The notes under the pieces were generated by a model that saw nothing but the letters and a program-made list of their open reading frames with translations, did no database searches and was not told the origin of the DNA. Made by a program: the position numbers and the translations under genes. Shown here piece after piece: positions 18,307-59,866 of a stretch of 64,000 nt of DNA. Position 1 is the first letter of the stretch. Each line of letters begins with the position of its first letter. This stretch comes from a virus (taxonomy: Duplodnaviria; Heunggongvirae; Uroviricota; Caudoviricetes): positions 1-64,000 of IMG/VR virus record IMGVR_UViG_2596583652_000001; one strand, 5' to 3'.

Positions 18307-19458
18307 CCCACGGGATCCGCCCGCACACCTTCCCGGCGCCAACATAATGTAAAGCTCTGCGTCAAACTCCGCCTCACCAGGCCCGAAAAGACCCCTCCCC
18401 TCTTCCCCGGAAATTCTCCGTCTATCTACCCGGATAGATAGAAGTGTTACGCTATGTTGTCGGAGTTTTACCTAAATCGGCCATTTCGGCCCTTTTCAGC
18501 GAAATGACCCAGTTTCGCGTCGTCACTCTAGAGCGATAGATAGACGCGAACCTGATTTACAGATCTAGCTAGATAGCTAGAGACGCATGCACAGCGTCGG
18601 GATGCACTCAGAGCAGCGCAGATAGCTATCGACGCATCCGCAGCGCTCAGCGACGCGCTCTGACGATCTCAGCACGCGAACCACTGAGAAAGCTAGACCT
18701 GCATCTAGCTAGATAGCTATTCCCTCAGAGAGCACAGACACGAGAGAGCGCGACGCTCAGACGGTGTGCCTCTAGTGAGAGAACGGCCATATGCGTGCAC
18801 TGGACGTGTGACGAGAGCCGGTCGCGAGTGTGTAGCCGCTCGGTGTGAGCAGATATGAGATCGGTGTGAGAGAGTGGTGGGTTCCGCGCCGCGGTTCTCC
18901 TAGGCTTCCCACGGCAAACCATGGCACCTCCGAAAACCCAACCGGACCCATGGAACCGGAATGGCTCGCTCCGCACCTAGGCCCAGCCAGACCCGTCGCC
19001 GCAGCGGAACAGGCAGTCCTGAGCCGGAGAGTCTCTACGCCGGAACATCGCCAGGCTTCTACGCCGGAGAGCCTCGGGAAAGAGGAGGTTTTCCTGACTA
19101 ATTACAAACCCTTTAAGAAGCATACATACTATACAGGCGATGGCACGGGACGTTAGGTCCGGATCGGTCCTATTCCGCACGAGCGGTCCATGGCACATCC
19201 ATGGCTCTCCATGGTTCCGGCTCGCGCGACGGCGGCGCTCCATGGATCAGACCCTTTCGGTGCAGTCATTCCATGGTGAACCATGGGCCGCACAGTATCG
19301 GTTACAGGTTTCGGCGGCTCCCATGCGTGCGCCCTGCGTATTACGACCCTGCCTGCACCTGTCCAACCCAAATATTCACCCATGATTGTTTCGTCTATTC
19401 TCTAATCATCGAAACGCAAGACGCTTTCGACGCAACAGAGAGAAAACGGAGCAAGACA
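18307..19458. repeat. ~1.15-kb noncoding repeat tract (iteron-like; candidate origin or immunity region)
   Basis: No credible ORF. Contains the palindrome TCTATCTAcccggaTAGATAGA (18421-18443), GCGATAGATAGACGCG, three copies of CTAGCTAGATAGCTA-type repeats (18561-18582, 18619-18638, 18689-18720), a CCATGG array (18920-19290), and composite element A (19035-19152). Confidence 0.55.
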
Positions 19459-20316
19459 ATGAGCGACAACACCACCACCGAGAACGAAGCCCTACTGAAC
19501 GTCGCCGATCTCCTCGCCATCGAGGACATCGTGTCCGGTCTCGAGAACGAAGCCGAAGCGCTCGCCGAGACCGAACGCCTGCAGCAGGCTGAGAGCCAGG
19601 CCCAGGCCGAGGTTCAGAACCAGGCCAGCACGGACGAGGCCTCGGCCGAGGCGGGCGACACCGAAGAGCCGGTGCCCACCGAGGCCACCCATGTGCCCGG
19701 CGACCTCAAGGAGATGATGGACGCGGTGCCCCAGGAGGACGTCGACATCAAGATCGCCGCCACTGAGACCGAGTTCAGCGTCCGCGCCGCCTTCGAGAAG
19801 GCGAAGAACCCCTCGAACCTGAAGATGCAGCAGAACCTCACCGCCTACGGCAAGCGGCTCGCTTCGCCGATCGCCGCCAAGGTGCTGTGTGCGACCGATG
19901 TCGATCCGGAGTTCCTCAACCGCGAGATCTCGAACGGCTCGCGCTTCAACGTCTACGCGATGGACAAGGTCGCGGACCTGGTGACGGCACTCTCCGGCGG
20001 CGTGATGCAGAACGCGATCAATCGCGCGATCACCCGCTCGATGTTCAAGTTCCGGGCGGCCGGTGTTCCCTTCACCGGGATCGCGGCCCAGGCGGCGTCC
20101 TCGGACAAGGTGAAGGTCGATCGCAAGCTCGCCCAGCTCCTGATCCGGCACACGGTGAGCGCCGCGACCGCGCCCACCCAGACCTCGAGCACCATGTCGG
20201 CGCTCGCCGTCATGGGCATCGTGCGCAACACGGGCTCGCAGAAGTATCCGGTCTACGAGCTGACCGACACGCCCCAGACGCGGCGTCTGGAGGAAGTGCT
20301 CGCCAAGGCGGCGTAA
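19459..20316 (+). CDS. hypothetical protein with an acidic low-complexity N-terminus
   Basis: ATG at 19459 in frame with track ORF 19201..20316. Preceded by the leader ATCGAAACGCAAG...GAGCAAGACAATG that is shared with the next two cassettes. Confidence 0.55.
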   Translation: MSDNTTTENEALLNVADLLAIEDIVSGLENEAEALAETERLQQAESQAQAEVQNQASTDEASAEAGDTEEPVPTEATHVPGDLKEMMDAVPQEDVDIKIAATETEFSVRAAFEKAKNPSNLKMQQNLTAYGKRLASPIAAKVLCATDVDPEFLNREISNGSRFNVYAMDKVADLVTALSGGVMQNAINRAITRSMFKFRAAGVPFTGIAAQAASSDKVKVDRKLAQLLIRHTVSAATAPTQTSSTMSALAVMGIVRNTGSQKYPVYELTDTPQTRRLEEVLAKAA

Positions 20317-20340
20317 GACCGCACACGAGCACAGCGCGAA

Positions 20341-20368
20341 GGGCGAGGGTTTCTCTCGCCCTTTTTGC
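20341..20368 (+). terminator. rho-independent terminator
   Basis: GGGCGAGGGtttctCTCGCCC stem followed by TTTTTG, directly after the stop at 20316. Confidence 0.6.
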
Positions 20369-20559
20369 GTTGCGGGCGGACGGGACGGGGAACGGCGCAC
20401 CATATGGGCTCCGCCGAAGGGTGGGGAACGGGGAATGGCTCGCTCCGGGCCTAGGGGCGATCAGGTCCCCATTTCCATGGTTCGCCGTGGAGATCCATGG
20501 GTGCGGCGCCGGATGAGGGCACGGATAAGGGTTCCGGGGGTGTGGCCGGCGCCCTGGCT

Positions 20560-20639
20560 GCGCCGTTACACACCTGCCGCAATCCGTGACGTGCGCTCGC
20601 TATAGTTTCAGCATCGAAACACAAACGAGAGACACGACA
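20560..20639 (+). promoter_or_regulatory. promoter/leader cassette copy 2
   Basis: CCGCAATCCG-N-GCGCTCGCTATAGTTTCAGCATCGAAACACAAACGAGAGACACGACAATG, about 85% identical to 21038-21107. TATAGT resembles a -10 hexamer. Confidence 0.4.
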
Positions 20640-20939
20640 ATGCAAGAGATCAGCCGTCAGCAGTTCGATGAAGCTCTGTCCGTTTCGCTGACTGAAGTGT
20701 TCGACGGATTCTTCGGCCGTCATCACATCGAAGTTCTCAAAGGCGACGAGAGGCTCGTCATGCTCGTCGCTGACTGCGAGAAAACCGACTATCACAACTC
20801 GTCATATTTCTACGCGCAGGGCGCGCGTGAGCGCAGCGAGAAGCTGATCGTCACCCGCTACTACGCGCTCAATGCCCTGAGCGAAGCGTATGAGCTGATC
20901 GCCCGCATCACGAACGCGCATTACGAACAGGTCCTGTGA
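20640..20939 (+). CDS. hypothetical protein
   Basis: ATG at 20640 in frame with track ORF 20586..20939. Confidence 0.5.
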   Translation: MQEISRQQFDEALSVSLTEVFDGFFGRHHIEVLKGDERLVMLVADCEKTDYHNSSYFYAQGARERSEKLIVTRYYALNALSEAYELIARITNAHYEQVL

Positions 20940-21037
20940 CCTGTTCGAGCCGCTGCTGGCCACAGGGCGTCACTGCCCTGTGGCCGATCCCTGTTCCTGG
21001 CGCGCCCTCTCCTCACCTGCCGGCGCCTGGCTGACCC

Positions 21038-21107
21038 TCCCGCAATCCGCAGATGCGCTCGCTATAGTTCAATCATCGAAACGCAAGAGCGAGACGCGAG
21101 AAACGCC
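21038..21107 (+). promoter_or_regulatory. promoter/leader cassette copy 3
   Basis: CCGCAATCCGCAGATGCGCTCGCTATAGTTCAATCATCGAAACGCAAGAGCGAGACGCGAGAAACGCCATG. Confidence 0.4.
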
Positions 21108-21404
21108 ATGTCCAAGATCTTCATCACCGATGTCGAGCACGATCACGAAGAAGACCACACCGACGTCATCCTGACCAACGAGCACGACAACGAAGTCGCC
21201 GTGCGCATGAGCTATGACGAGAACCTGCGCGTGACCATCACCGTGCTGCGCTCCGAGAAGTTCGCCGCCTTCCCCACGCCCTACGTCAACGACGCCGTCT
21301 TCGCCGCCGCCGTGATCATGAAGCTCAACGAGCTGACGACGCCCGAGACCGCGATTCCCCTCGTCGTCGACATCACCGAGCCCTTGCTGCTCGTCGAGTT
21401 CTGA
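21108..21404 (+). CDS. hypothetical acidic protein
   Basis: 98-aa ORF. Confidence 0.5.
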   Translation: MSKIFITDVEHDHEEDHTDVILTNEHDNEVAVRMSYDENLRVTITVLRSEKFAAFPTPYVNDAVFAAAVIMKLNELTTPETAIPLVVDITEPLLLVEF

Positions 21405-21822
21405 ACCGGCCACCATCAGGCCAAGGCGAGGCCAGGCCATTGCGGACCAGGCCAGCCACCTCTCCGGTGGAGCAGGCATCGCCTCCCCTGCCCCACTGAG
21501 CGCCCTGCCGGGTCATGGACCGCCCGGCAGGGTATTTCGCACCTCGGGCAACAGGGCACAGGGCGGATCCCTTGGATTTCCATGGGTGCCCAGAAATGGC
21601 CGCTGACGGGCGCCCGGCATTTGCGGCCCGTTGCTGCTCGCGACCCCTCCTTGCCAGCCAGCGCCCGGCTGTGGCGTCCCCTGCCCCAATATCACGCCCA
21701 CAGCTCGCCCTACCCTGCCGAGCCCGCACAGACCCCTCCGCCACCCAGATTTAGCTAGATACAGATTTAGCTAAACTGTGACTGTCAGCGAATGAGCGCT
21801 GACATCAATCGGAGCAACGACA

Positions 21823-22137
21823 ATGAACCGCACTCTCGACACGCTCGCCGCTCGTGCCGCCAACGACCTCGACATCCTCGAGGCGTGCAAGAACCACACG
21901 GTGCCGCCGGTCGCCGAGAAGCGCCGGGCGCTCGCCGATCTCGTGCGCAAGTCGGGCGACAGCTTCCGGGCAGCGCACGAGCAGTCGGGCGTGACGCTCA
22001 CCGAGTTCCTCGATCTCGCGAGCACGAAGCTGCGTGACATCCGGCGCGGCCGGGCGGCGCTCGCCAAGGAACGCCTCGCGCGCATCGAGCAGGCGAAGCT
22101 CGAGCGGGAAGAGCTGATGGCCGGGCTCGCCGTCTGA
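21823..22137 (+). CDS. hypothetical protein
   Basis: 104-aa ORF. Upstream direct repeats GATTTAGCTAGATACAGATTTAGCTAAA (21750-21778). Confidence 0.45.
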   Translation: MNRTLDTLAARAANDLDILEACKNHTVPPVAEKRRALADLVRKSGDSFRAAHEQSGVTLTEFLDLASTKLRDIRRGRAALAKERLARIEQAKLEREELMAGLAV

Positions 22138-22711
22138 CGCAGCGATGGGGCGCTCGACATGGGCGCCCCTTCATTGCGCCAGGGCAACAGGGCACGGTTC
22201 AGGGCTCCGCCGATTAGGTATGGCTTGGATCAGTGGGATCCCTGGTCGGGCCGCCCGCGCGCCGTGCAGGTCACGGGCGCCGCAGGGGCCCGGGGAAGGT
22301 TCTTGTGAACCTTCCCCTTAGGCGAAGGGCACCCTGAAGACGCCCGAAAGCCGCGGTCCAGGCGAACCGCGGCTTTACAGATTCAGCTATTTGCAGGAAT
22401 GCAGGTTCAGCTATTCAGCTGGAATGGCGCATGTGGCGCCCAGCCCGACCAGGCGGTAGACATCGTCCAGCTCCGGGCCGGCGAGACCGTCTTCCAGGCA
22501 GTCATCGCTCGGCAGCCGGCTCGGCGTGGCAAGGCTGGTCTGCCGGCGCCAGCGGTCGAGATGCCGGCGCTCGGACGTGGTGGTGGCGAGGCTGGAGCGC
22601 ATGCCATCGCCATAGGCGGTGCGCTTGCTGGCGTGTGGGGTTCTAGGCATTTCTGTATCCAGCTATTTGCAGGAATGGCTATATGCAGGAATGGCTGAAG
22701 CTGGATGCCGG

Positions 22712-22903
22712 TCAGGCCAGGCCGAGGTCCTGAAGGATGCGCCGGCGCTTGGCCTCCAGGCTCATGCGCTGGCTCATGAGGCGAAACACGCCATAGACGT
22801 CCTGACTGTTGCAGGCTTCCCGGGCCTGGTTGGTGATGGCGTTGGCGATGGTGTCGAATGCCTTGGTGATTTCGTTCTCGGTCTTGGTGCGGTGCATAGC
22901 CAT
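22712..22903 (-). CDS. small protein, candidate DNA-binding regulator
   Basis: 63-aa minus-strand ORF with GGAGAC upstream. It is the only coding sequence inside a ~1.3-kb tract of GATTYAGCTA, TTCAGCTAT and GCAGGAATG repeats (22375-22700). Confidence 0.35.
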   Translation of the reverse strand: MAMHRTKTENEITKAFDTIANAITNQAREACNSQDVYGVFRLMSQRMSLEAKRRRILQDLGLA

Positions 22904-23055
22904 GGTGGTGTCTCCGGTTGGTGTGCCCGTGGGACGCCCGGTAGGGCGTAGGGGTGAGGTCTGGCTGGCTTTTGGGGCAGGGCAGGCGAGGGAGGCGGGG
23001 ATGCGCTTTTCGAGAGAGCTAGAGCGCTTTGCAGCGCTCTAGCGTGTCTCGCGCG

Positions 23056-23616
23056 TCACGCGTCGACTTTCTCGCTCTGAATATCGAACGCTTCACAGAG
23101 CGCTTTCGCGAGCTTGTTCACGTTGACGCGATACGTTGCGCGCTTGTCTGCAACGTCAACGAGAATGTTCAGCGTCTTAAGAGCGTCGATCGACGTTTGA
23201 ACTTGCGCAGCGATCGTGCTTTCGTCTTGCGTCACGTTACGCTGATAGACAAGCGCACTCTTGTCATCAGCGATCTTGCGAGACTTTGAAAGCGACGCTT
23301 CGCAATCGCTCTTAGTCAGTTCAAGCGACGATTGAGCGTGCAACATTGCAGTTCTGAAGATCGCATACGTGTTTTCGTTAAGATCGCTCGCGTCGCGCAC
23401 GATAGCTTGATGCGCGAACTTGACGACTTTCTCGCTCGCATACATTGCGCGAGCGAAGCGCTGCGCGTCGACTTTTGCGCTTGTCATGAGCTTCACAAAC
23501 TTGTCATTCGTGAAACGCTTAATCATGTTTTCGAGTTTCTTAATATTCGTCGCGCTTGCATTCTTCTCTTTCGCAACGACGATGCGAGCTTCGAGTGCAG
23601 CGATATAAGCGTTCAT
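23056..23616 (-). CDS. hypothetical all-helical protein encoded in a low-GC island (moron)
   Basis: 186-aa minus-strand ORF. A/T-rich codons, clearly lower GC than the flanks. Convergent with surrounding + strand genes. Confidence 0.5.
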   Translation of the reverse strand: MNAYIAALEARIVVAKEKNASATNIKKLENMIKRFTNDKFVKLMTSAKVDAQRFARAMYASEKVVKFAHQAIVRDASDLNENTYAIFRTAMLHAQSSLELTKSDCEASLSKSRKIADDKSALVYQRNVTQDESTIAAQVQTSIDALKTLNILVDVADKRATYRVNVNKLAKALCEAFDIQSEKVDA

Positions 23617-23905
23617 GATCTTGTCTCTCGTTTGCTTGTCTGCAATGCGTCATTGCTTGCTGACAATTTGATAATAGCGAAGTCTTAGAACGGAACAATG
23701 CAGTTGATGGGGATGCCTATACAACCCCGCGACTTCCCCGGTCCTATCCTCCACTATGCGAGACCGTGTCACCCCGCTGCCCGACGCCCTCTGCCCAGCT
23801 GTCCGCCCTTGCGCACATGAGGCGGCTCCCACCCCAGGAACCGATGCGAGATTTCATGGAACCTCCGCTCTAGCTATCTAGCTGGATAGCTGAATCTGCA
23901 TCGCC

Positions 23906-23933
23906 GAATGTAAGTATGTATTGACTTACTTTC
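23906..23933. promoter_or_regulatory. palindromic motif copy (GTAAGTATGTATTGACTTAC)
   Basis: Lies between the low-GC island and the ORF at 24015. Confidence 0.4.
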
Positions 23934-24014
23934 TGACGGGGAATAGCGTCCTCACCCGTTGCAAATGCTCACTCTGCGCAGCCGCTGCTGCCCGCTCCAG
24001 CACAGGACCCGCCC

Positions 24015-24401
24015 ATGTCCATCACCGATCCGTTCGCCGGCAAGCCGCCCTACCGCGATGACGAGACGCCCCTTCCCTTCGTGCCGTCGATCGAGAAGCA
24101 GCTGCTGGCCGAGCGCCGAGCCCAGATCGCCCAGCTGGGTCGTCCCATCAAGCACCCGGGCCTGCCCGTCGCCGGCTACACCGCCCAGGACCCGGCCAAG
24201 ATCGCCGCGGTGAACGTCAACAAGGAGCTCGAGGAGCGCGTCCTGCGCCAGATCGACAAGCTCAAGCTCGACCAGGAGGGCCTCGAGCCCGATCAGTGCC
24301 TCATCGCCATCGCCCACACCCACATGCAGATCGCCTTCATGGTGCTGAACCGGGCGATCTTTAAGCCCGAGCGCATCAAGCTGCCGGAGGACGGCCAGTG
24401 A
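24015..24401 (+). CDS. hypothetical protein
   Basis: 128-aa ORF. Confidence 0.5.
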   Translation: MSITDPFAGKPPYRDDETPLPFVPSIEKQLLAERRAQIAQLGRPIKHPGLPVAGYTAQDPAKIAAVNVNKELEERVLRQIDKLKLDQEGLEPDQCLIAIAHTHMQIAFMVLNRAIFKPERIKLPEDGQ

Positions 24402-25155: not shown

Positions 25156-25351
25156 CGTCGAAGCGGTTCATCTCGCGCGCCGGCTGGTGCTGCTCGACAA
25201 CGGCACGGTGCGGCCGATCGCGACGCTGCTGGATTGTCTGGGAGAGGAGACGGCGGCCGAGCGCGAGGCGGTGTCGGCGATTGTCGAGGCAATGCCAGGT
25301 GTCTGGCTATGTGTGGATCTCCGGACGTTCGAGGCCGCGCCGCTGCACTAG
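25142..25351 (+). CDS. hypothetical protein
   Basis: ATG at 25142 in frame with track ORF 25064..25351. Confidence 0.3.
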   Translation: MPAPDVEAVHLARRLVLLDNGTVRPIATLLDCLGEETAAEREAVSAIVEAMPGVWLCVDLRTFEAAPLH

Positions 25352-25430
25352 CTAGATAGCTATTCCTGCATTCAGTCATTTCTGTATCTAGCTGGAGCTG
25401 GGTTCAGCTATCGAGCTAGATGCGATCGAA
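25352..25430. repeat. centromere-like repeats (candidate parC/parS)
   Basis: CTAGCTAGATAGCTATTCCTGCATTCAGTCATTTCTGTATCTAGCTGGAGCTGGGTTCAGCTATCGAGCTAGATGCGATCG, immediately downstream of the ParG-like gene. The same repeat families occur at 18561-18720, 23865-23895, 26405-26440 and 27485-27520. Confidence 0.45.
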
Positions 25431-25490
25431 CGTCCGGAGATCACCGAGTCTGCGAGGGGAGGGTGGGGGCTCCTACCCATGATCGACAGC

Positions 25491-25757
25491 TCAGTCCTTC
25501 AGCTCCTTCTGCCGTGCTTCCCACGCCTCGAAGGACTGAATCAGGAGATCCTTCATGGACAGGTCGTGCATCGAAGCCGTCGCCTTGAACCGGCGGTGCC
25601 AGGTCTTGGGCATGTTGAAGGTCATGGCGGTGTAGGGCTCACCGTTCATGTTGTTCGCCGCTTCCTTCGGCGCCGCGGCGATCGCGGCCGCGCCTAGGAA
25701 AGACGCCTTCTGCGGCCGCACCGGCGCCGCCTTCGTCTTCGGCTTTTCCTCGCTCAT
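25491..25757 (-). CDS. small basic partition protein, ParG/ribbon-helix-helix-like centromere binder
   Basis: 88 aa with a Lys/Ala/Pro-rich flexible N-terminus and a short C-terminal structured region. Overlaps parA by 4 bp (ATGA). Confidence 0.5.
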   Translation of the reverse strand: MSEEKPKTKAAPVRPQKASFLGAAAIAAAPKEAANNMNGEPYTAMTFNMPKTWHRRFKATASMHDLSMKDLLIQSFEAWEARQKELKD

Positions 25758-26404
25758 AGTCGGTTCTCCGTCAGTCGGTTGACCCGGTCGACGATCTCCG
25801 CAGCAAGGGTGTCCGCCTTGTCGTTCAGGCTGGGGTATTTGCTCTCGGAAGGAGCGCGACCGGTGTTTTGGGCCATCGCGTAGCCCGTTTTGGCGGATAG
25901 ATCCTGCTCGGCCACCAGATAGAGCGACCCCTGCAGGATATATTGCCGCGCTTCGCTCACCGCCAAGTCGCTGTCCGTGGTCTTGTTGAGCACGAACATG
26001 ATCCGCTCCCTGGCGATGCCTTTGGCCACCAGCTCATTGGCAAATAGGAGCTGGGGCTTCAGATCGTCCAGCGTGAGGCCGGTCGGCACGACCACGAGCG
26101 TGGCCGCGCGAGCGATCTCGAGGCTCGACTGATCCGAATCCGGACGTCCGTCCGCCACGACGCAGTCGAAAGGCTCGCGCTTCATGGAGGAGGGGGAGTT
26201 GTAGGGCTCGGCGACGATGATGGGTTCGACGCCTTGAGCCGCGCGCATGGCGCACCAGTCGACAGAGGTCTTCTGCCGCGTGTTGAAGTCGCAGATCTTC
26301 ACCGACCAGCCCGCTGCGGCATAGGTGCGGGCCATGAGCCGGGCGATGGTCGATTTCCCGACCCCGCCTTTCTGCGAGAGACACCCGATGATCAGGTCAG
26401 CCAT
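25754..26404 (-). CDS. parA: ParA-family (type Ib, small) partition ATPase
   Basis: Deviant Walker A GCLSQKGGVGKST. 216 aa with no N-terminal HTH, i.e. the short ParF/Soj-like form. Confidence 0.85.
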   Translation of the reverse strand: MADLIIGCLSQKGGVGKSTIARLMARTYAAAGWSVKICDFNTRQKTSVDWCAMRAAQGVEPIIVAEPYNSPSSMKREPFDCVVADGRPDSDQSSLEIARAATLVVVPTGLTLDDLKPQLLFANELVAKGIARERIMFVLNKTTDSDLAVSEARQYILQGSLYLVAEQDLSAKTGYAMAQNTGRAPSESKYPSLNDKADTLAAEIVDRVNRLTENRL

Positions 26405-26464
26405 TTCTGTATTTACCTATTCAGCTATAGCTGTATATGGCTACCCGATTTGCGTTAACGATGT

Positions 26465-27413: not shown

Positions 27414-27426
27414 AGCAAGCTCTCAA

Positions 27427-27455: not shown

Positions 27456-27512
27456 TGCCCCTCAGAGCTTGATTTTCCCGATGCAGAACCAGCTATTCAG
27501 CTAGACCTGCAT

Positions 27513-27743
27513 CTAGCTAACGCTGTGATTACCGCTTTCTGTATCGTCGGCGTCGTCCTCGGCCTCGCCGGCGCCCAGCAGCTTCAGCCGCCGGACCATG
27601 CGAGCGAGCTTGCCGCGCAGCTCCTCATTCTCGTCGGTGAGCCGATCATTCTCCTCCGAGAGCCAGGCGAGGGTGACGACCGGCTCGCCGAGCTCGTTGA
27701 AGAAGTGGATCGGGTCGATCTTGCGGGAGGGGAGGGCGCTCAT
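27513..27743 (-). CDS. hypothetical protein, acidic with a coiled coil
   Basis: 76-aa ORF overlapping the helicase stop by 4 bp. Confidence 0.4.
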   Translation of the reverse strand: MSALPSRKIDPIHFFNELGEPVVTLAWLSEENDRLTDENEELRGKLARMVRRLKLLGAGEAEDDADDTESGNHSVS

Positions 27744-32480: not shown

Positions 32481-33349
32481 TGCTTTCTGACACCGAGACA
32501 CTGATCGAGCGCATCGACAGCCCTCGCGCGTTCTTCTCGCTCGCGGACGAGATGTTCGTGGAGCGCGGAACCATCGACGACTGGTATCTGCTCCACGATC
32601 TCCACTACAAGGCCGAGAAGCTGCCCATTGGCCCGCGCTTCTGGCGCCTGGTGCTCGCCGGCCAGACCATCGGCGTCCTCGTCACCGGCACGCCCAAGGG
32701 CATGCTGCGCGAGCGGCACATCGTGTTCCCGAACCTGAAGCCACGCTCGGGCGACACGCGGCTGACCAACACCAACCGCTACCACTACATCAACGCCAAT
32801 TTCCGGGTGATCTCGCGCTTCGTGATCGACACGATGTTCCGCGGCATCGGCGCCGGCTACCGGATGATGAACCTGGTCTCGCGCATGGAGGGCAACACCT
32901 TCATGGAGATCCAGTCGTCCATGTCGAAGTTCAACGCCTTCGGCCAGAAGGCCGGCTTCAAGTTCGTCAAGCCGATGAACGCCAACAAGTATGACCAGGT
33001 GCTGCGGTTCTTCCGCTCGCACTTTGCCGCCAGCCCGCAGGATTTCGAGGCCATTCTCGCCGAGATCGCTGCCAAGCCGCCGGCCGAGCAGCAGCGGCTC
33101 GCCGAGATCTGCACCGACTTCTATTTCCGCAACTCAGCGCTCGAGAACACCTCCAATGGCGGCGCGGCGATGGAGCAGCGCCGGGCGTCGATGAGCCTGC
33201 GCGATGCGGTGAAGGGCATTCAGCAGATCGGGCTTGCCTCGCCCATGTATGGGATCTGGAAGTGCCCGGACCCGAAGGGCAGCGTTCCTGAGCGCCTCGC
33301 TCTGACCCAGTTCGACCGGCAGGGGCCAAGCGAGAGGCTGCGCCTGTGA
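32477..33349 (+). CDS. hypothetical protein with a GNAT-like motif
   Basis: 290 aa. VIDTMFRGIGAGYRMMNLV resembles the acetyl-CoA-binding motif A of GNAT acetyltransferases. Confidence 0.45.
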   Translation: MMLSDTETLIERIDSPRAFFSLADEMFVERGTIDDWYLLHDLHYKAEKLPIGPRFWRLVLAGQTIGVLVTGTPKGMLRERHIVFPNLKPRSGDTRLTNTNRYHYINANFRVISRFVIDTMFRGIGAGYRMMNLVSRMEGNTFMEIQSSMSKFNAFGQKAGFKFVKPMNANKYDQVLRFFRSHFAASPQDFEAILAEIAAKPPAEQQRLAEICTDFYFRNSALENTSNGGAAMEQRRASMSLRDAVKGIQQIGLASPMYGIWKCPDPKGSVPERLALTQFDRQGPSERLRL

Positions 33350-33597
33350 TCAAGACCCGCAAGCAGCGCGAGATCATGAGCCTCATCCTGGCCGGTGTGG
33401 CCAGGTGCAAGCTCTACACCGCCGAGGAGATCAACCAGAAGGTCTCCTTTGCGTGCAGCGAGGGTGCGACCCGTGTCTCGCTTCGCTTCCTCGTCGCGCA
33501 CGGCATCCTGGTGAAGAAGAGAGTGGGCCGGAACGTGATCTACAGTCCAACGCCGCAGGCGTATGTGGATTTCTATGTGCTTCCAGAGCACGCATGA
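33346..33597 (+). CDS. winged-helix DNA-binding protein
   Basis: 83 aa (GTG at 33346 or ATG at 33376). ...VSLRFLVAHGILVKKRVGRNVIY is a typical wHTH recognition helix plus wing. Confidence 0.4.
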   Translation: MIKTRKQREIMSLILAGVARCKLYTAEEINQKVSFACSEGATRVSLRFLVAHGILVKKRVGRNVIYSPTPQAYVDFYVLPEHA

Positions 33598-33601: not shown

Positions 33602-33726
33602 CCAACGCCGGAACCTCATCCCGTTCCTTCGCCTGTCTTATAATAGAATATAAGTTACAACATACTTATATTAGTATATAGACAGGCGAAGGAACGGGAT
33701 TTCCTGGTCCAACTCTCCGGCGTTGG
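33602..33726. repeat. composite palindromic element B (GC-rich arms, AT-rich core with TATAAT)
   Basis: Outer arms CCAACGCCGG/CCGGCGTTGG. Inner 21-bp perfect arms ATCCCGTTCCTTCGCCTGTCT (33618-33638) and AGACAGGCGAAGGAACGGGAT (33680-33700). The 41-bp core is cttataatagaatataagttacaacatacttatattagtat. It lies 60 bp upstream of terS. Confidence 0.6.
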
Positions 33727-33759: not shown

Positions 33760-34440
33760 ATGACGTCTCCGGCGGAGGAAGAGAACGAGGTTGAAGGAAC
33801 CGGCGCTGAAGACGCATCCGGTCCCGGCCGGCGTTTGACCGATGCCGAGTTTGCCGAGATCCGGGAGCTCTATGAGCTCGGCAAGGCCGGGCTGAGCGAG
33901 CTCGCCACCACCTACAAGATCTCGCGCCAGACGCTCTCCCGGCGTTTCAAGGATGTCGGCGCTAAGAAGGGCTCGCGGGCCCATGAGCTGGCTGCTGCGG
34001 CCAAGAAGGCCGCGGTCGCGGCGACGGGTGTTTCCGCCGGCGCCACCATCGAGCGCTTCGCCGACCGGCGCGCCGAGTGGATCGAAGAGACCCGGATGAA
34101 CGGCTACCAGGCGCTCAAGGAAGCGCGCCTGATCGGCCGCAAGATCATGTCGGAGAACCTGCGCGCGACGCCTCCGCGGCCGATGGCGCATATCGACGAC
34201 GATCTGAAGGCGCTCGCCCGCTACAACAAGCTGCTGATCGACAACATCGCCGCCAGCATCGAGCTGCTGCAGGCCAACGACCATGTCGATGAGACCACGC
34301 TGCCCTCGCTGTCGATCGAGGATCTCACCGACGACGACATCCTCGAGCACCACAAGAACATCGGCGCGCTCCCCGAGGATGCGACGGTCGCCGACATGCT
34401 CGCGGAGAATGATGAGGATGGCGAGGAGGGCTCGCCGTGA
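33760..34440 (+). CDS. terS: terminase small subunit (candidate)
   Basis: 226 aa. N-terminal HTH (LSELATTYKISRQTLSRRFKDVG). Its stop overlaps the GTG start of terL. Confidence 0.55.
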   Translation: MTSPAEEENEVEGTGAEDASGPGRRLTDAEFAEIRELYELGKAGLSELATTYKISRQTLSRRFKDVGAKKGSRAHELAAAAKKAAVAATGVSAGATIERFADRRAEWIEETRMNGYQALKEARLIGRKIMSENLRATPPRPMAHIDDDLKALARYNKLLIDNIAASIELLQANDHVDETTLPSLSIEDLTDDDILEHHKNIGALPEDATVADMLAENDEDGEEGSP

Positions 34441-35705
34441 GGAGCGGGCTCTCGCTGAAGCTGCACAAGCTCCAGAAGCTGGTCCTGCGCGATCCCCGGC
34501 GCTTCCGGGTGATCGTCGCCGGCCGGCGCTGGGGCAAGACGCAGCTCTCCAAGATCTCCCTGATCCGCTTCGCCACCGAAAAGCAGAAGCAGCTGGTCTG
34601 GTATGTGGCGCCGACCTATCAGATGGCGCGCGACATTCTCTGGGACGACCTGAAGGCGTCGATCCCGGCCCAGTGGGTCCTGAAGATCCACGAGACCCGT
34701 ATGGTCATCTGGCTGATCAACGGCTCGCGCATCCATCTCAAGGGGGCCGACAAGCCCGACACGCTGCGCGGCGTCGGCCTGAACTTCCTCGTCATGGACG
34801 AGGCCCAGGACGTCAAGCAGGAGACCTGGGAGCTGGTGCTGCGCCCCACGCTCGCCAGCACCGGCGGCCGGGCGCTGTTCATCGCCACCCCGAAGAACTT
34901 CAACTGGCTCCACGCCATCTATGTGCTCGGTCAGCGCGGCGCCATCGTCGAGGATGAGCGCGGGCGCCGGGTGCCCAATGACTGGAAGAGCTGGCAGTTC
35001 CCGACCATCACCTCGCCCTTCATCCCGAAGAGCGAGATCCGTCAGGCCCGGCGCGACATGGATCCGCGCTCCTTCCGCCAGGAGTTCGAGGCGAGCTTCG
35101 AGACCATGTCCGGCCGGGTCTATTACCCGTTCGAGCGCGGCGAGCATGTGGGCGACTATCCCTACAATCCGGCGCTACCGATCTATGTCGGCATGGACTT
35201 CAACATCGACCCGATGTCGATGATCATCATCCAGGAGCAGCACAATGGCGAGATCTGGGTGGTGGATGAGGCGGTGCTGCCGGGCTCCAACACCCAGGAA
35301 GCGGCCGACGAGCTCGGCCGGCGCTACTGGAAGCGGATGAACGCACTCTCGATCTATCCCGATCCGGCCGGCAACAATCGCAACCATGACCGTGGCGAGT
35401 CCTCGCTCGACATTCTGCGCGAGGCCGGCTTCCGCAACATCTACTACAAGCGCAAGCATCCGCTGGTCATGGACCGGGTGAACGCCGTCAATCGCCTGCT
35501 GCGCACGGCCGAGGGTCAGGTCCGCCTGCGCGTCGATCGCAAGTGCCGCAAGTTCATCGATAGCCTCGAGCAGACCATCTACAAGGAAGGCTCGCGCGAG
35601 GTCGACAAGAGCAAGGGCACCGAGCACGCGGCGGACGCTTTCGGCTATTACGCTGACTTCCGGCACCCGGTGATCAAGCCGAAGATCCTCGGCATATCTC
35701 TTTGA
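34437..35705 (+). CDS. terL: terminase large subunit
   Basis: Walker A VIVAGRRWGKTQ, Walker B LNFLVMDEAQDV, and a C-terminal RNaseH-like nuclease region with acidic residues (GMDFNIDP...DEAV). Confidence 0.9.
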   Translation: MRSGLSLKLHKLQKLVLRDPRRFRVIVAGRRWGKTQLSKISLIRFATEKQKQLVWYVAPTYQMARDILWDDLKASIPAQWVLKIHETRMVIWLINGSRIHLKGADKPDTLRGVGLNFLVMDEAQDVKQETWELVLRPTLASTGGRALFIATPKNFNWLHAIYVLGQRGAIVEDERGRRVPNDWKSWQFPTITSPFIPKSEIRQARRDMDPRSFRQEFEASFETMSGRVYYPFERGEHVGDYPYNPALPIYVGMDFNIDPMSMIIIQEQHNGEIWVVDEAVLPGSNTQEAADELGRRYWKRMNALSIYPDPAGNNRNHDRGESSLDILREAGFRNIYYKRKHPLVMDRVNAVNRLLRTAEGQVRLRVDRKCRKFIDSLEQTIYKEGSREVDKSKGTEHAADAFGYYADFRHPVIKPKILGISL

Positions 35706-35765: not shown

Positions 35766-37403
35766 ATGTCGGGTCCAGATCAGGATGTTCTGCGGGCGTT
35801 TTACGAGCGCCGGCACCCGGCCTATGCCGATCTTGTTCATCACTGGTATTTCCTCGAGGCGGCCTATCGCGGCGGCCGCGCCTGGTTCGAGACCAATATC
35901 TTCCGCTATTACAAGGAAGGCTCGAAGGAATTTAAGGCCCGTCTCGACCGGGCCTATCGCTTCAACCACACCCGCGAAGTCGTCGAGCTCGTCCAGAAAT
36001 ACCTGTTCAAGGCATCCGCCTCGCGCAATTCCGATGCGCCCCAGGTCATTGTGGATTTCTGGAAGAAGGCGACCCTGTCAGGGCTGCCGATCGACCAGCT
36101 GATGCGCTCGGCCTCCGTCGCCAACTCGATTGGCGGCCGCGTGGCCATCGTGGTGGACAACAACTTCGTCAATCAGGTCGAGGTCGCAGGGGAGGGCGGT
36201 CAGGTTCGCCGGCGCGCTCTGTCGATCGCCGAGGCCAAGCAGCAGAAGTTCTCGATCTACGCCTATCTCGTCGCCACCAAGGACATCCTGGACTATGCCT
36301 GGGATGAGGATGGCTCGGGCGGCCTGCTGTGGATCAAGCTGCGCGAGACCGTTCGCGACGACGCCGACCCGATCCATTCGAGCGGTGACCTGATCGACCG
36401 CGTCCGGCTGTGGACGCGCACCGACGTTACGCTGTTCGAGGAGCGTGACACCGGCCAGACCAAGATCGTCAACGGCCGCTCCGTGCCGGTGAAGACCATC
36501 AATGTGCTCGAGCATCGCCAGCACGATCTCGGCATGGTGCCGGTGGTGCTGGCCGATCACACGATCGGTGAGGATCCCTACCGGGTTCCCGGCCTGATCG
36601 ATGACATCGCCTATCTGGACCGCGCCGTCGCCAATTATCTGTCCAACCTCGACGCCATCATCCAGGACCAGACCTTCTCGCAGCTGGCTATTCCCGCCCA
36701 GTCGCTGCTGCCGGGCGAAGACGCCTACAAGAAGATGCTGGAGATGGGCACCAAGCGGGTGTTCGTGTTCGACGCCTCCGCCGGCTCGGCGCGCCCGGAA
36801 TATCTCTCGCCCGATCCCAAGCAGGCCGGCGTGATCCTCACGGTGATCAACAAGATCATCAACGAGATCTACCACACGATCGGACTCGCCGGAGAGCGCA
36901 CGAAGGAAGACAACGCGGTTGGTATCGACAATTCGTCGGGCGTCGCCAAGGCGTATGACTTCGAGCGCGTCAACTCGCTGCTCCTGTCCAAGGCGCAGTC
37001 CTGCGAGTCGGTCGAGAACAAGCTGATCAACATCGTGCTTGCCTGGGCCGGCGAGGCGCCGCCCAAGGACAAGCTCGTCTCCTATCCCACCACGTTCGAC
37101 GTGATGCGCCTGGTTGACGATCTCGTCACCGCCGAGGCGCTCGCCAAGCTCGCCGCGCCCGTGGAGGTCCGGCGCGAGCAGATGCGCGGTCTTGTCGACA
37201 AGCTGTTCCCGCAGCTGAAGGCGGACCTGCGCTCCAAGCTCGCCGCCGACATCGAGACCTGGCTCGACGACGCGGACATCGCTCTCACCCCTCCGACCAA
37301 CTTCGGCAGCTCCAAGCCTGCTGCGTCACCCAATCGCCAGGGCGAGGTGACGGCTGACACCCCCTCGAAGACCAAGGGCGCCGCTTCCCGCAAGGCGTCC
37401 TGA
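35766..37403 (+). CDS. portal protein
   Basis: 545 aa, placed between terL and scaffold/capsid. Typical size. Assigned on position and size, not on motif. Confidence 0.7.
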   Translation: MSGPDQDVLRAFYERRHPAYADLVHHWYFLEAAYRGGRAWFETNIFRYYKEGSKEFKARLDRAYRFNHTREVVELVQKYLFKASASRNSDAPQVIVDFWKKATLSGLPIDQLMRSASVANSIGGRVAIVVDNNFVNQVEVAGEGGQVRRRALSIAEAKQQKFSIYAYLVATKDILDYAWDEDGSGGLLWIKLRETVRDDADPIHSSGDLIDRVRLWTRTDVTLFEERDTGQTKIVNGRSVPVKTINVLEHRQHDLGMVPVVLADHTIGEDPYRVPGLIDDIAYLDRAVANYLSNLDAIIQDQTFSQLAIPAQSLLPGEDAYKKMLEMGTKRVFVFDASAGSARPEYLSPDPKQAGVILTVINKIINEIYHTIGLAGERTKEDNAVGIDNSSGVAKAYDFERVNSLLLSKAQSCESVENKLINIVLAWAGEAPPKDKLVSYPTTFDVMRLVDDLVTAEALAKLAAPVEVRREQMRGLVDKLFPQLKADLRSKLAADIETWLDDADIALTPPTNFGSSKPAASPNRQGEVTADTPSKTKGAASRKAS

Positions 37404-49707: not shown

Positions 49708-49740
49708 CCGTGAAGTAAGCAGGTGCTTATTTCGTCCTTG

Positions 49741-56593: not shown

Positions 56594-57912
56594 GCCTTGG
56601 TCAGTCCCTCGTCGAGATCAATGGCATCCTTCGCTACCGCACGGTGCTTCCTGGTTACAACGCCAAGGATCCGGCCCTCGATCCGCGCTATGTCACCTTC
56701 GACAGCACCTGGCAGAATACGCTGAGGCTGATGGCGAGCGGGACAGTCGCCGGATCCAGTCTTTCGACGAGCATCTACCAGTTCCGGAACAGCGCGATAG
56801 GCGGCACGGTCATTGCCAACCGCATCGTGCGTGTAATCCCGGTGCCTGGTGCAACTGTCAAAACGCCGGCCCTGGTGTGGGCGGTCGCACCAGCTGGTAA
56901 CGTGCAGAAGTTGACGGTTGTCGGCAACCAAGTATTTCAGACCCCGGTGCCCTTTCAGAAGGGGTATCGCATGTGCTCGGTCAACTTGAAGAACGACGCC
57001 ATTCATGTGTCGCCCTCCTACAATAATCGGGACTACACCTACCTCGTCTTCAAGACCGACCCGACAACCACCGAGGAATCGGGTGGGAACGGCGCGCGTA
57101 TTGGCCTGCATCCGCTCTATGGTATGGGCGCGTTCTTCTCAAGACCGGGCTTCAATCATCTCACCTGTTCGCTCGATGACATGATGCTGACGAGCGCCCG
57201 CAACATGGCGCAGGTCTATGAGACTGGCTATGTGACGGTGGATGCAACCTATTCGGGGGAGCCTTTCGGCAATAGCGGTGGTGGCGGGACGATCGTGAAC
57301 CTGCGCGGCTCCTATCCCGACTTTCCGCCTGTCATTGCCTTTCGGACCTCTACGGGCGCTATCAGCCGGCTGATGTCCGTCTTCTGGCTGAGCCCGAGCC
57401 AGATTTTGGTCACGGGTGCTTCGAGCGGCAATCAGGTTCGCTTTGCTGTTCTCTCGGCTACGCCCGACTACATTCCTGATCCCGACACGCGCGCGGTCAG
57501 GCGCGTTCGTATGGTGAATGGCTCACTCGACATCACCAAGCGAAACATCGACTGGTCGGAGGCGACGAGCGACGCGGATTTTCTGTTCCGCTCGAGCCGC
57601 CAGACAGCGCAGTTCAACGGTATGCTGCCCTTTCCGACGGTCCTGAACAGCGGCTTCTACCCGCTGCACACCCCTTCTCCGGCAGGCGCCGGCCCGCCCT
57701 TCGTGTTCATGCTCGCCTTTGAGGCGACCTGTGGCTGGTGGTGTGGCTGTGGTTATGTCGACACTCAGGATATCGTCGGTATTACCCAGCAGTTCAATCC
57801 GCGCTTCCGCGGCGCCGTGATCAGCAACACCCATTATCAGTGGTATCGCGACTCGCAATACAGCAACAACATCAACGGCTGGGTCACCACGATGAACATC
57901 TCGGACTTCTAG
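56590..57912 (+). CDS. tail fiber-associated protein (hypothetical)
   Basis: 440-aa ORF coupled to J (ATGA overlap). Confidence 0.45.
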   Translation: MSLGQSLVEINGILRYRTVLPGYNAKDPALDPRYVTFDSTWQNTLRLMASGTVAGSSLSTSIYQFRNSAIGGTVIANRIVRVIPVPGATVKTPALVWAVAPAGNVQKLTVVGNQVFQTPVPFQKGYRMCSVNLKNDAIHVSPSYNNRDYTYLVFKTDPTTTEESGGNGARIGLHPLYGMGAFFSRPGFNHLTCSLDDMMLTSARNMAQVYETGYVTVDATYSGEPFGNSGGGGTIVNLRGSYPDFPPVIAFRTSTGAISRLMSVFWLSPSQILVTGASSGNQVRFAVLSATPDYIPDPDTRAVRRVRMVNGSLDITKRNIDWSEATSDADFLFRSSRQTAQFNGMLPFPTVLNSGFYPLHTPSPAGAGPPFVFMLAFEATCGWWCGCGYVDTQDIVGITQQFNPRFRGAVISNTHYQWYRDSQYSNNINGWVTTMNISDF

Positions 57913-57993
57913 GCGTGGCGCGATACCTCTGGCGATGAAAAGGCACGGCCGCGTGAGTGTTCTGCAGCCGTGCTTATGGACACTCCTCACCAT

Positions 57994-58024
57994 CTAATGT
58001 ATGTGTGTGCATACTTACTTTGAC
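57994..58024. promoter_or_regulatory. palindromic motif copy (CTAATGTATGTGTGTGCATACTTACTTTGAC)
   Basis: 15 bp upstream of the first lysis-cassette ORF. Confidence 0.5.
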
Positions 58025-58038
58025 GGGTGATTAGGGTC

Positions 58039-58341
58039 ATGCCAAGCGAGCCGAGCATCAGCCTGAACCAGAAGACGCTCGGCTTCTTCCTGGCCCTGGT
58101 CGCGGTCGTGACCCTGGGCTGGAACGCCGTCGCCTACTTCAAGGGCATCGAGCACAAGAACGTCGAGCAGGACATTCGCCTCGATCGCACCGACGAAGAC
58201 CGACAGATCCAGAAGGAGCTGATCAAGGAGACCGGCGCCCTCAAGGAAGCAGTTGTGAAGCTCACCGGCGTCATCGAGCAGGCGCCGGGCCGCAAGGCGG
58301 AGATCCGCCCCAGCTCGCCCTCCTTCTTCGGGATGCCGTGA
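58039..58341 (+). CDS. membrane protein with one transmembrane helix, holin/antiholin candidate
   Basis: ATG at 58039 (MPSEPSISLNQKTLGFFLALVAVVTLGWNAVAYF...). First gene of the lysis cassette. Confidence 0.4.
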   Translation: MPSEPSISLNQKTLGFFLALVAVVTLGWNAVAYFKGIEHKNVEQDIRLDRTDEDRQIQKELIKETGALKEAVVKLTGVIEQAPGRKAEIRPSSPSFFGMP

Positions 58342-58342
58342 C

Positions 58343-58561
58343 ATGAAGCTCCTTCCGAACTGGCGCGAGATTCTCTTCAAGGCGTGGAGCGTGCGGCTCC
58401 TGATGCTCGCCATGCTGCTGACGGCCATCGAGGCCGTCCTGCCGCTCATCACCTTCATCCCCATTCCGCCTGGCTATTTCGCCGTCCTCTCCGGCCTCGT
58501 GACCGGCGCCGCCTTTGGCGCCCGGCTGCTCGCCCAGAAGAACCTCAGCGCCGGCGAGTGA
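58343..58561 (+). CDS. holin candidate with two transmembrane helices
   Basis: 72 aa. LLMLAMLLTAIEAVLPLITFIPIPPGYFAVLSGLVTGAAFGA. Confidence 0.5.
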   Translation: MKLLPNWREILFKAWSVRLLMLAMLLTAIEAVLPLITFIPIPPGYFAVLSGLVTGAAFGARLLAQKNLSAGE

Positions 58562-58595
58562 CCGCCCTGTAGCCCTTGCACCAACAGGAACCCTG

Positions 58596-59183
58596 ATGCC
58601 CGTCTCCAAGCTCCGTCCCACCAAGCGCGCCTCCGCTGCGATCGCCGCTGTCATGGCCATGGCGGTGTCGATCGGTGGCGCCCTGTTCGTGACGGCTCCT
58701 AACGGCAAGCAGTATCCCGCAGCCGTCGTGCTGGCCGCCGAGCACATCGTCAAGGACTGGGAGGGCCTGCACCTCACCGCCTATCGCGACATGGTCGGCA
58801 TCTGGACCATCTGCTACGGCGAGACGCTCGGTGTGAAGCCGGGAATGCGCAAGACCCGCGCCGAGTGTGAGGCGATGCTCTATGAGCGCCTCCATCGCGA
58901 CTTCTACCTCGCCATCGTCAAATGCGCGCCCCAGCTCGCCGCAGCGCCGATCTCCGTGCAGGCGTCCATGCTGTCGGGCTCCTTCAATTTCGGCGTCGGC
59001 GCCTGGTGCCGCTCGACCGCCTCGCGGCACATCCGGGTCCGGGCATGGCGTCCGGCCTGTGACGCCCAGACCCTCTTCAACCGCGCCGGCGGCCGCGTCG
59101 TTCAGGGTCTCGTGAACCGCCGTGAGATGGGCGATGCCCAGCGTCTTGGCGAAGGCGAACTCTGCGTGTCGGGAATCAAGTGA
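58596..59183 (+). CDS. GH24 lysozyme with an N-terminal signal-anchor-release (SAR) domain
   Basis: ATG at 58596 in frame with track ORF 58515..59183. SAR helix ASAAIAAVMAMAVSIGGALFVTA, then the T4/P21-type lysozyme core EGLHLTAYRDMVGIWTICYGET. Confidence 0.8.
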   Translation: MPVSKLRPTKRASAAIAAVMAMAVSIGGALFVTAPNGKQYPAAVVLAAEHIVKDWEGLHLTAYRDMVGIWTICYGETLGVKPGMRKTRAECEAMLYERLHRDFYLAIVKCAPQLAAAPISVQASMLSGSFNFGVGAWCRSTASRHIRVRAWRPACDAQTLFNRAGGRVVQGLVNRREMGDAQRLGEGELCVSGIK

Positions 59184-59581
59184 TGCTGTCGTTTCTCGGT
59201 ATTTCCCCGCTCAAGCTTGCCGTCGCCTGCGGCGCGATTCTGGTAGTCCTCGCCAGCATCTTTGGCGCCTTTTCCTATGTGCGCTCGCTCACCCGCGAAC
59301 TCGCCAGCACGCAGTCCCAGCTCGCCGTGGAAACCCAGCTGCGTGAGCGCACCCAGGCCGAGCTCACCCTCGTGCGCGCCGCCCAGCTGAAGCAGATCCA
59401 GGACATCAAGACCCTCGACGCGCTCAATACGGCCTCGGCCGTCGCTTGGGGCGAGGTCGAGCGCGAGGTCGAAACCATCAACACGAAAGGGCCGGCCGAT
59501 GCGCTCGCTGCTGATCTCAACCGTCTCAATCGCGCTGCTAACGGCATGCTCCGGAAAGCCGCCGGAGCCGGTGACCGCTGA
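59180..59581 (+). CDS. inner-membrane spanin (Rz-like)
   Basis: N-terminal transmembrane helix then a long coiled coil. Contains an embedded out-of-frame lipoprotein gene. Confidence 0.65.
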   Translation: MMLSFLGISPLKLAVACGAILVVLASIFGAFSYVRSLTRELASTQSQLAVETQLRERTQAELTLVRAAQLKQIQDIKTLDALNTASAVAWGEVEREVETINTKGPADALAADLNRLNRAANGMLRKAAGAGDR

Positions 59582-59777
59582 GCCGATCGCGCGCTATCAC
59601 CCGCCCGTTCCGGCGGCGCCGCGGCTGGACGATGTCGATTACAAGTCCTGTGAGAGCGGAAAGATGATCTGCCTCACGCCGGAAGAGGCGCGAACCGAGA
59701 TCGCCAACAAGGTGCGCGTCGGGGTGTTTATCGACAAAGCGATGAACGTGATCCGCTATTACCGCCTGCAGGACTAG
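59499..59777 (+). CDS. outer-membrane spanin lipoprotein (Rz1-like), partly embedded in the Rz-like gene
   Basis: Lipobox LLTAC-SGKPPEP; Pro-rich. Overlaps the C-terminus of the Rz-like gene in another frame. Confidence 0.65.
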   Translation: MRSLLISTVSIALLTACSGKPPEPVTAEPIARYHPPVPAAPRLDDVDYKSCESGKMICLTPEEARTEIANKVRVGVFIDKAMNVIRYYRLQD

Positions 59778-59780
59778 ACT

Positions 59781-59866
59781 ACGCCGGAACATCCCGTTCC
59801 ATCGCGTGTCTATTACTGTAATCTCTTAGATAACTATTATACTATACAGGCGAAGGAACGGGATGA
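59781..59866. repeat. composite palindromic element C
   Basis: CTACGCCGGAACATCCCGTTCCATCGCGTGTCT - AT-rich 32 bp - ATACAGGCGAAGGAACGGGATG. The right arm abuts the ATG at 59867. Related to elements B (33602) and A (19035). Confidence 0.5.

Follow-up and report, generated by a model that had tools for sequence, protein, structure and literature searches.

The repetitive extragenic palindrome (REP)-IHF-REP elements of Escherichia coli (RIB/RIP, of the BIME class) consist of two inverted GC-rich palindromic units with a site for integration host factor (IHF) at their centre, while the cosB site of phage lambda (R3-I1-R2), beside Nu1, is single-copy, adjoins the nicking site and is IHF-dependent. 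In P1, the C1 operators are asymmetric sites of about 17 bp at several promoters, where they occur singly or as inverted pairs, the paired ones overlapping. The nearest described kind to the element considered here is the promoter-early stem-loop (PeSL) of T4-type phages, an intergenic cassette of about 100 bp in which a promoter is joined to a stem-loop that can halt transcription coming from upstream (PMC2839356, PMC4122927). Here we describe a repeated element of about 80 bp in a 64,000-nucleotide stretch of a tailed-phage genome (IMG/VR record IMGVR_UViG_2596583652_000001, positions 1 to 64,000; hereafter the window). The element is an AT-rich, promoter-like core flanked by GC-rich inverted arms, and the window has two full copies of it, B and C, and one decayed copy, A.

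B lies between a gene for an 83-amino-acid winged-helix protein and a terS-like gene, and C lies between an Rz-like spanin gene and a gene for a 638-amino-acid protein, so that together they bracket the whole packaging, virion and lysis block. We tentatively read B and C as boundary cassettes, each combining a hairpin with a promoter, the copies of which would be homogenised by recombination. The cassette is conserved across the family to which the window belongs, and it is apparently undescribed in the searchable literature and in Rfam: no match in the whole window reached an Rfam family gathering threshold, and nothing relevant on the SSU5 arm and core sequences or on SSU5 palindromes was found in the searchable literature.

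Anatomy of the repeated element

The inner arms of B are 21-mers that are complementary at every position, and a TA-rich −10-like box of the core adjoins the right arm (Table 1). The preliminary description of this DNA had reported perfect inner arms around a 41-bp AT-rich core with TATAAT and a copy of the TAAGT...ACTTA motif at 33602-33726, and this was confirmed; the sequences and coordinates that it quoted for A, B and C all proved correct on re-reading of the window. The arms of C differ from those of B by two bases and one base, and from each other by three internal mismatches (A.A, G.G and C.T). Here too a −10-like box, TACTAT (59840-59845), adjoins the right arm, and the element stops two bases before the ATG at 59867 of the 638-amino-acid gene.

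Element A extends over 19035-19152. Its leader, CTACGCCGGAACATC, is identical to that of C at 15/15 positions, and a second leader copy is present within A at 19058-19068. The three copies of a palindrome counted previously are thus to be reduced to two: B and C are true composite palindromes, while A comprises only the leader, a 7-nt remnant of the left arm and the right arm, and is a decayed copy of the cassette. A was detected neither by an inverted-repeat scan nor by a covariance model built from relatives, both of which find only B and C in the window. Similarly, a search for the 21-mer arms with up to three mismatches returned exactly four arms in the window, those of B and C, where none are expected in shuffled sequences. 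As RNA, B is predicted to fold at −72.4 kcal/mol (z = −12.9), C at −32.6 (z = −5.6) and A at −36.7 (z = −3.7).

Conservation and covariation in relatives

The window is a member of the RHEph10/V1VFA-S clade of SSU5-type phage-plasmids, of about 115 kb. Its terminase and portal region is 70-74% identical to that of the Rhizobium phages V1VFA-S, RHph_X66, B1VFA and RHEph10 and more distant from that of Pseudomonas phage nickie and Salmonella phage SSU5, and the same region matches plasmids of about 115 kb from Rhizobium, Sinorhizobium, Pararhizobium, Shinella and Methylobacterium, together with hundreds of enterobacterial plasmids. These relatives are SSU5-type phage-plasmids with RepC, ParA and ParB-like genes. 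The earlier remark that the organisation is not described for lambda-like phages is therefore beside the point, the genome being SSU5-like.

In every relative examined (V1VFA-S, RHEph10, pLM21S1, plasmids of Pararhizobium, Shinella and Methylobacterium, and about 40 IMG/VR and metagenome loci), the same architecture is found at the same two places, directly 5′ of the terS-like gene and directly 3′ of the lysis cassette, with two to three copies per alphaproteobacterial genome at conserved positions. The left arm starts 0-21 nt past the upstream stop codon, and in C the right arm carries the likely Shine-Dalgarno sequence and adjoins the ATG. The terS-upstream arms are TTCCCGTCCATTCACTGTC...GACAGTGAAAGGACGGGAA in V1VFA-S and TTCCGGTCCGTCTCCCTTC...GAAGGGAGTTGGACCGGAA in RHEph10. 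The post-lysis cassette is present in RHEph10, in the Pararhizobium, Shinella and Methylobacterium plasmids, and in pLM21S1 and V1VFA-S, the left arm being decayed in the last two. The cores are position-specific: terS-upstream cores have TAAGT..ACTTA, and the core of C in the window shares TCTTAG(AT) with two orthologous cores. A TAnTAT box adjoins the right arm in 13-15 of 18 elements.

These positions bear on the idea that the elements are a small mobile element of the kind of a miniature inverted-repeat transposable element (MITE), or targets of a site-specific recombinase or telomere resolvase. Inverted terminal arms in several copies, one of them decayed, would suit such an origin, as would the hybrid arms described below, which suggest exchange between copies. 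However, the elements are not scattered but hold orthologous positions even in very divergent genomes, no relative has an empty site, no target-site duplication flanks B or C, the core, of 32-45 bp and non-palindromic in C, is unlike recombinase core sites or telRL, and no recombinase or protelomerase gene is adjacent. We consider this origin very improbable. A MITE or insertion-sequence remnant was accordingly rejected on the absence of direct duplications and the occupied sites, and a protelomerase target (telRL) on the non-palindromic core of C and on its neighbour, the 638-amino-acid protein, which is assigned to phrog_1745 ("DNA transfer protein") and has no Pfam or PDB match. As a required partner of the cassette this protein was also set aside, since V1VFA-S lacks the gene and retains the cassette. 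Among the fallback ideas of the preliminary description, a regulatory hairpin, an operator or a recombining repeat pointed in the right direction.

The proposal to examine relatives for arm substitutions that preserve pairing was followed up here. The arms pair in all relatives, with many compensatory substitutions, which indicates that the element is functional. RNAalifold, applied to 25 terS-upstream elements, predicted 16 arm pairs, and 15 of these 16 have changes on both sides. In an arms-only alignment of 26 elements, 82% of the cells are paired, compared with 63% in shuffles (0/500 reached this value) and 34-50% after sliding of the partner, and double changes occur at 14 of the 18 pairs. 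The series C-G, U.G, U-A is seen among Methylobacterium-type elements, and some compensatory changes are specific to a single copy, as in the Pararhizobium C (CTCTCTTC/GAAGAGAG) and in a Klebsiella copy (CTTTCG/CGAAAG). Among close relatives the inner arms come in at least 8-10 different sequences, while the outer part, TTCCSG, is semi-conserved between lineages. Within one genome the copies evolve in concert: their arms are identical at 14-17/18 positions, compared with about 8/18 between lineages.

The distance from arm to arm spans 72 to 84 bp. Helical phasing of this spacing was looked for and none was found; likewise, no core contains a match to the IHF consensus WATCAANNNNTTR, with four loose matches only among 29 elements. 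An unphased span without an IHF site fits a loop better than a protein bridge. Taken together, inner arms that are hypervariable yet complementary, their universal inverted orientation, the unphased spacing and the copy-specific compensation favour pairing between the arms.

In the main alternative, the arms might be operators, that is, asymmetric sites of about 20 bp in inverted orientation for a genome-specific DNA-binding regulator that co-regulates the virion operon and the following one. The regulator could be a prophage repressor, a late activator or the 83-amino-acid winged-helix protein, and protein and sites would co-evolve in the way of immunity specificities. Such a regulator would account for arms that are alike within a genome and unlike between genomes, for the maintenance of copies with a right arm only (A, and the C-type copies of V1VFA-S and pLM21S1), for the semi-conserved outer part, for arm mismatches without G.U bias together with a mid-arm mismatch position that recurs and is tolerated, and for cores with only a −10-like box, as in activator-dependent late promoters. 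Further, a variable winged-helix gene always adjoins the B-type cassette, and the phage-plasmid P1 uses asymmetric 17-bp C1 operators, single or as inverted pairs, at many promoters. However, the number of inner-arm sequences among close relatives would need equally many switches of specificity, inversion would not be needed for independent binding and is nevertheless universal, the variable and unphased spacing speaks against cooperative bridging across distances below 90 bp, and copy-specific compensatory double changes occur. Moreover, when the complete V1VFA-S genome was searched for further arm copies, e.g., at a repressor gene, none were found. We regard operators as possible but rather unlikely.

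Possible function at operon boundaries

The boundary-cassette reading rests on the position at operon heads, on the −10-like box in the AT-rich core, and on the T-runs that follow enteric copies. The cassette starts a few bases past the last stop codon of what would be one transcription unit and reaches almost to the opening gene of the next; B would head the packaging and virion operon, and C, following the lysis genes, would head the next operon. In RNA that reads through from upstream, the GC-rich arms could form a helix of 19-21 bp, closing off or processing that transcript, and in C the helix would also bury the ribosome-binding site, which lies in the right arm. The −10-type box in the AT-rich core may start the downstream operon, to which the core of B would add the operator-like TAAGT..ACTTA motif that occurs genome-wide. 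Transcripts begun within the core would carry the right arm only and hence form no helix. In C, for example, RNA started at about 59852 would leave the Shine-Dalgarno sequence free, while in read-through RNA it would be sequestered. The arms of the copies in one genome might stay alike through homologous recombination between them.

Several observations weigh against this reading. Within a genome, a left arm is complementary in trans, to the right arm of another copy, to about the same degree as in cis, and right arms are kept at 17/18 where the left arm has decayed (V1VFA-S, pLM21S1), with 17/21 for A in the window. A pure cis-pairing model predicts neither of these, and concerted evolution together with lone right arms is better explained by a reader acting in trans or by frequent exchange of copies. 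The sense-strand G.U bias among arm mismatches is not significant (G.T 25, A.C 16, other 51), so that pairing at the RNA level is not specifically supported over symmetry at the DNA level. Simple scans call neither a sigma-70 consensus promoter nor a canonical terminator at B or C, and the alphaproteobacterial copies lack T-runs, with none after C and only TTT after B. The loop, of 32-41 nt, is also atypical of a terminator, as intrinsic terminators have a loop of 3-8 nt and a U-tract. The class of intrinsic (Rho-independent) terminators was therefore rejected, given the long loops, the lack of a T-run at C and the lack of a called terminator at B and C.

A symmetry that acts in DNA could reflect an extruded cruciform, or an unwinding element serving as a replication origin or as a supercoil-sensing switch. 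The AT-rich, easily melted centre between GC-rich arms, the equally good pairing of both strands and the missing G.U bias would agree with this. However, the RepC-type replicon is elsewhere in the relatives, loops of 32-45 nt make extrusion unfavourable, the elements have no iterons or DnaA-type boxes, and the copies are placed precisely at gene boundaries, all of which leaves this reading with very little credit.

A somewhat speculative extension of a reader in trans is that the arms serve as a genome-specific "address", read by a fast-evolving phage protein (e.g., the 83-amino-acid winged-helix protein) or by an RNA complementary to the right-arm leader. Such an address would couple the virion operon with the following one and set the specificity of lytic control or immunity in SSU5-type phage-plasmids, including Yersinia pestis pMT1; we would sooner doubt than adopt it. 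If it held, exchange between the direct-repeat copies that bracket the virion and lysis module could excise the module and leave a plain plasmid. In pMT1, which was checked for loss of the module at the cassette, the virion genes are still present.

The 83-amino-acid winged-helix protein is, judging from its sequence and place, a candidate factor that binds the arms or otherwise acts in trans. Its gene lies immediately 5′ of the B-type cassette in all relatives, in rhizobial phages as well as in plasmids of E. coli and Yersinia, and its sequence varies far more than that of the TerS-like protein.

The preliminary description had also considered B, for its location immediately upstream of terS, as a pac or cos recognition site. 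Terminase recognition, either at a pac site or at a cosB-like R3-I1-R2 site, would agree with the location of B directly 5′ of the terS-like gene in all relatives and with the arrangement of lambda cosB, in which inverted gpNu1 sites surround a bendable centre beside Nu1; the SSU5 GenBank record, moreover, was opened inside its copy. However, the element is multi-copy, with near-identical copies at other conserved sites (C, about 26 kb from B, and three copies in SSU5), and no IHF-type site is present in the cores. In the TerS-like protein, the recognition-helix region of the helix-turn-helix (HTH) part is conserved between lineages with hypervariable, completely different inner arms. The relative B1VFA packages DNA with fixed ends and a direct terminal repeat of 3.6 kb, with neither cos ends nor a pac series (PMC12509600), and the start of the SSU5 record may be a mere assembly break at the palindrome. 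A role of B in terminase recognition is thus highly doubtful, and this part of the preliminary description is not supported. The records of B1VFA and V1VFA-S begin at different, non-homologous places. A profile search of genome contigs with the TerS alignment found a single locus.

A boundary cassette of the kind proposed here would matter for several reasons. SSU5-type phage-plasmids are abundant, and their alphaproteobacterial branch infects rhizobia. A strongly covarying cis-element at the heads of the main lytic operons throughout the family would give an experimental handle on the silencing and switching of the 26-kb virion and lysis operon, and the element could improve the annotation of operon boundaries in SSU5-type phage-plasmids.

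The element in enterobacterial phage-plasmids

In enterobacterial SSU5-type plasmids, Y. pestis pMT1 among them, the element is shorter. In E. coli pLAO4 and in SSU5 it reads CCTGCTTCCG-TATATA...TAAGTGACTTA...TATATA-CGGAAGCAGG and lies 5′ of the terS-like gene, and SSU5 has two further copies, each at another gene boundary (33456-33515 and 78304-78360). With 81 bp of the E. coli version as the query, 799 PLSDB plasmids were matched at two to six places each, among them pMT1; the genera represented are Klebsiella, Escherichia, Enterobacter, Yersinia and Salmonella. T-runs follow copies 2 and 3 of SSU5 and a Klebsiella copy, as at intrinsic terminators. Hybrid arms, with the left arm of one variant and the right arm of another, occur in SSU5 copy 3, in the Klebsiella terS copy and in IMG/VR contig 3300037566_000044, which suggests crossovers within the core. 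The linear SSU5 record NC_018843 both starts and ends inside the terS-upstream palindrome, about 9 bp from its centre; this is either an assembly break at the hairpin or a real physical end.

The stretch from the C-type cassette to phoH has a different set of genes in every relative, with no gene, a DNA-transfer-protein gene, tail-like genes or both (Table 1), so that the cassette borders a hyperplastic spot. Together with the hybrid arms, these variable genes lend some support to exchange between copies.

Genome setting and other repeats

The TAAGT..ACTTA motif in the core of B is one of at least 12 occurrences in the window of a 16-bp quasi-palindrome, AAGTRNGNNCATACTT (TATAAGTGAGCACATACTTAT), here called D1, which lie 2-35 nt 5′ of start codons. 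D1 precedes the portal gene and other virion genes, one copy forming the centre of B, and it is also present in relatives, in SSU5 and the E. coli plasmids as TAAGTnACTTA. From its sequence and placement, D1 is probably a promoter or operator motif of the phage's own. At 108518-108589 of V1VFA-S (L022 8518-8589), a weak match to the covariance model (E = 0.44) has TAAGT..ACTTA directly 5′ of a Shine-Dalgarno sequence and a GTG start, with short CCCGTC/GACGG arms on either side; this may be an intermediate between the plain motif and the full cassette.

Table 1. Coordinates of the cassette copies, neighbouring genes, D1 motifs and corresponding loci in relatives (window positions unless a contig is named).
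Feature	Position	Strand	Remarks
A, leader and left-arm remnant	19035..19052	+	CTACGCCGGAAC and CATCGCC (7 nt); about 10 nt of arm gone
A, TACTAT box and right arm	19127..19151	+	box 19127-19132; arm ATACAGGCGATGGCACGGGAC, 17/21 identical to B right arm
B, whole inner palindrome	33618-33700	+	perfect 21-bp arms, 41-bp core
B, outer left arm	33602..33611	+	CCAACGCCGG, within leader CNACGCCGGAAC common to A and C
B, inner left arm	33618..33638	+	ATCCCGTTCCTTCGCCTGTCT; starts 21 nt past stop codon of 83-amino-acid winged-helix gene
B, core	33639..33679	+	41 bp, about 86% AT; TATAAT 33639-33644; quasi-palindrome AAGTTACAACATACTT 33652-33667
B, inner right arm	33680..33700	+	AGACAGGCGAAGGAACGGGAT, purine-rich; 59 nt 5′ of terS-like ATG
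B, outer right arm	33717..33726	+	CCGGCGTTGG
C, leader	59779..59790	+	CTACGCCGGAAC; starts 2 nt past stop codon of spanin-like gene
C, left arm	59791..59811	+	ATCCCGTTCCATCGCGTGTCT
C, AT-rich core	59812..59843	+	CTCTTAGAT, also in orthologous cores of relatives
C, right arm	59844..59864	+	ATACAGGCGAAGGAACGGGAT; holds likely Shine-Dalgarno AAGGA 59853-59857 of 638-amino-acid gene
83-amino-acid winged-helix gene	33346..33597	+	directly 5′ of B
terS-like HTH gene (phrog_867)	33760..34440	+	first gene of virion module
TerL	34437-35705		
Portal gene	35766-37403		
Lysis cassette	58515..59777	+	endolysin 58515-59183; spanin-like gene (Rz-like, phrog_812) 59499-59777; ends just before C
638-amino-acid gene (phrog_1745)	59867..61783	+	"DNA transfer protein"; 3′ of C
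D1 motifs	23912, 27429, 30809, 33652, 35716, 38480, 43000, 49745, 57997	+	
D1 motifs	29377, 39442, 61782	−	
Winged-helix orthologues	L001 1718-1972; L003 1850-2086; L029 1805-2071; L075 6721-6987		
Variable stretches, C-type cassette to phoH	L021 15254-15461; L023 23828-25801; L024 28107-34478; L025 33610-33801; L026 29369-33561; L027 29058-33760		

Three other sets of repeats were seen in the window. About ten (T)CCATGG motifs are arrayed at 18919-19290, within the same 1.1-kb non-coding gap as element A, and three of them, at 19187-19217, are spaced by 10-11 bp; the motifs may form a protein-binding array. A 49-nt repeat (CGCTATAGTT..CATCGAAAC..) occurs at 20592-20640 and 21054-21102, 5′ of successive small genes, with a similar leader at about 19385-19440, and, having no relation to the palindromes, represents a second type of repeated promoter or leader. 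Repeats of the ATCTAGCTAGATAGCTA type, both direct and inverted, are found at 18424-18719, 22658-22696, 23868-23904, 25345-25396 and 27486-27519, scattered around a ParA-like gene (25754-26404, minus strand), and could serve the plasmid-prophage as centromere or iteron sites.

Comparison with known systems

Each of the described systems shares some traits with the element. The inverted GC-rich units of RIB/RIP likewise surround an AT-rich centre of about 30-40 bp and lie at the 3′ ends of transcription units. However, the element has no IHF consensus, its arms are specific to the phage lineage rather than host REP sequences, and its centre is promoter- or operator-like. In lambda cosB, too, inverted protein-binding repeats surround a bent AT-rich centre directly 5′ of the small-terminase gene, whereas the element is multi-copy and without an IHF site, and its relatives have long terminal repeats.

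The C1 operators of P1 belong to a phage-plasmid as well, and are asymmetric sites of about 17-20 bp at several promoters. Arms that evolve in concert, and single right arms that are retained, are, at the sequence level, what a C1-like operator set might look like. By contrast, the arms here are 32-45 bp apart and flank a promoter-like core, whereas the paired sites of P1 overlap, and the arms here are only putative binding sites.

The PeSLs would thus be the closest parallel, as both would be composite promoter and stem-loop cassettes in intergenic positions, with several copies per genome that are alike enough for recombination and that lie near variable gene content. As to the stem-loop, a very stable, covarying helix that might end upstream transcription is predicted at B and C; however, it encloses the promoter-like core, and T-runs follow enterobacterial copies only. 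The two differ in that a PeSL has a short G/C stem-loop in or beside a consensus sigma-70 promoter, whereas here arms of 19-21 bp enclose the promoter-like core, and the consensus early promoter (−35, −10 and upstream AT tract) was not found at B and C, which have the TAnTAT box only. Further, PeSLs occur by the dozen in hyperplastic regions of T4-like myoviruses, whereas the element described here is present in two to six copies per genome at conserved operon heads of siphovirus phage-plasmids.

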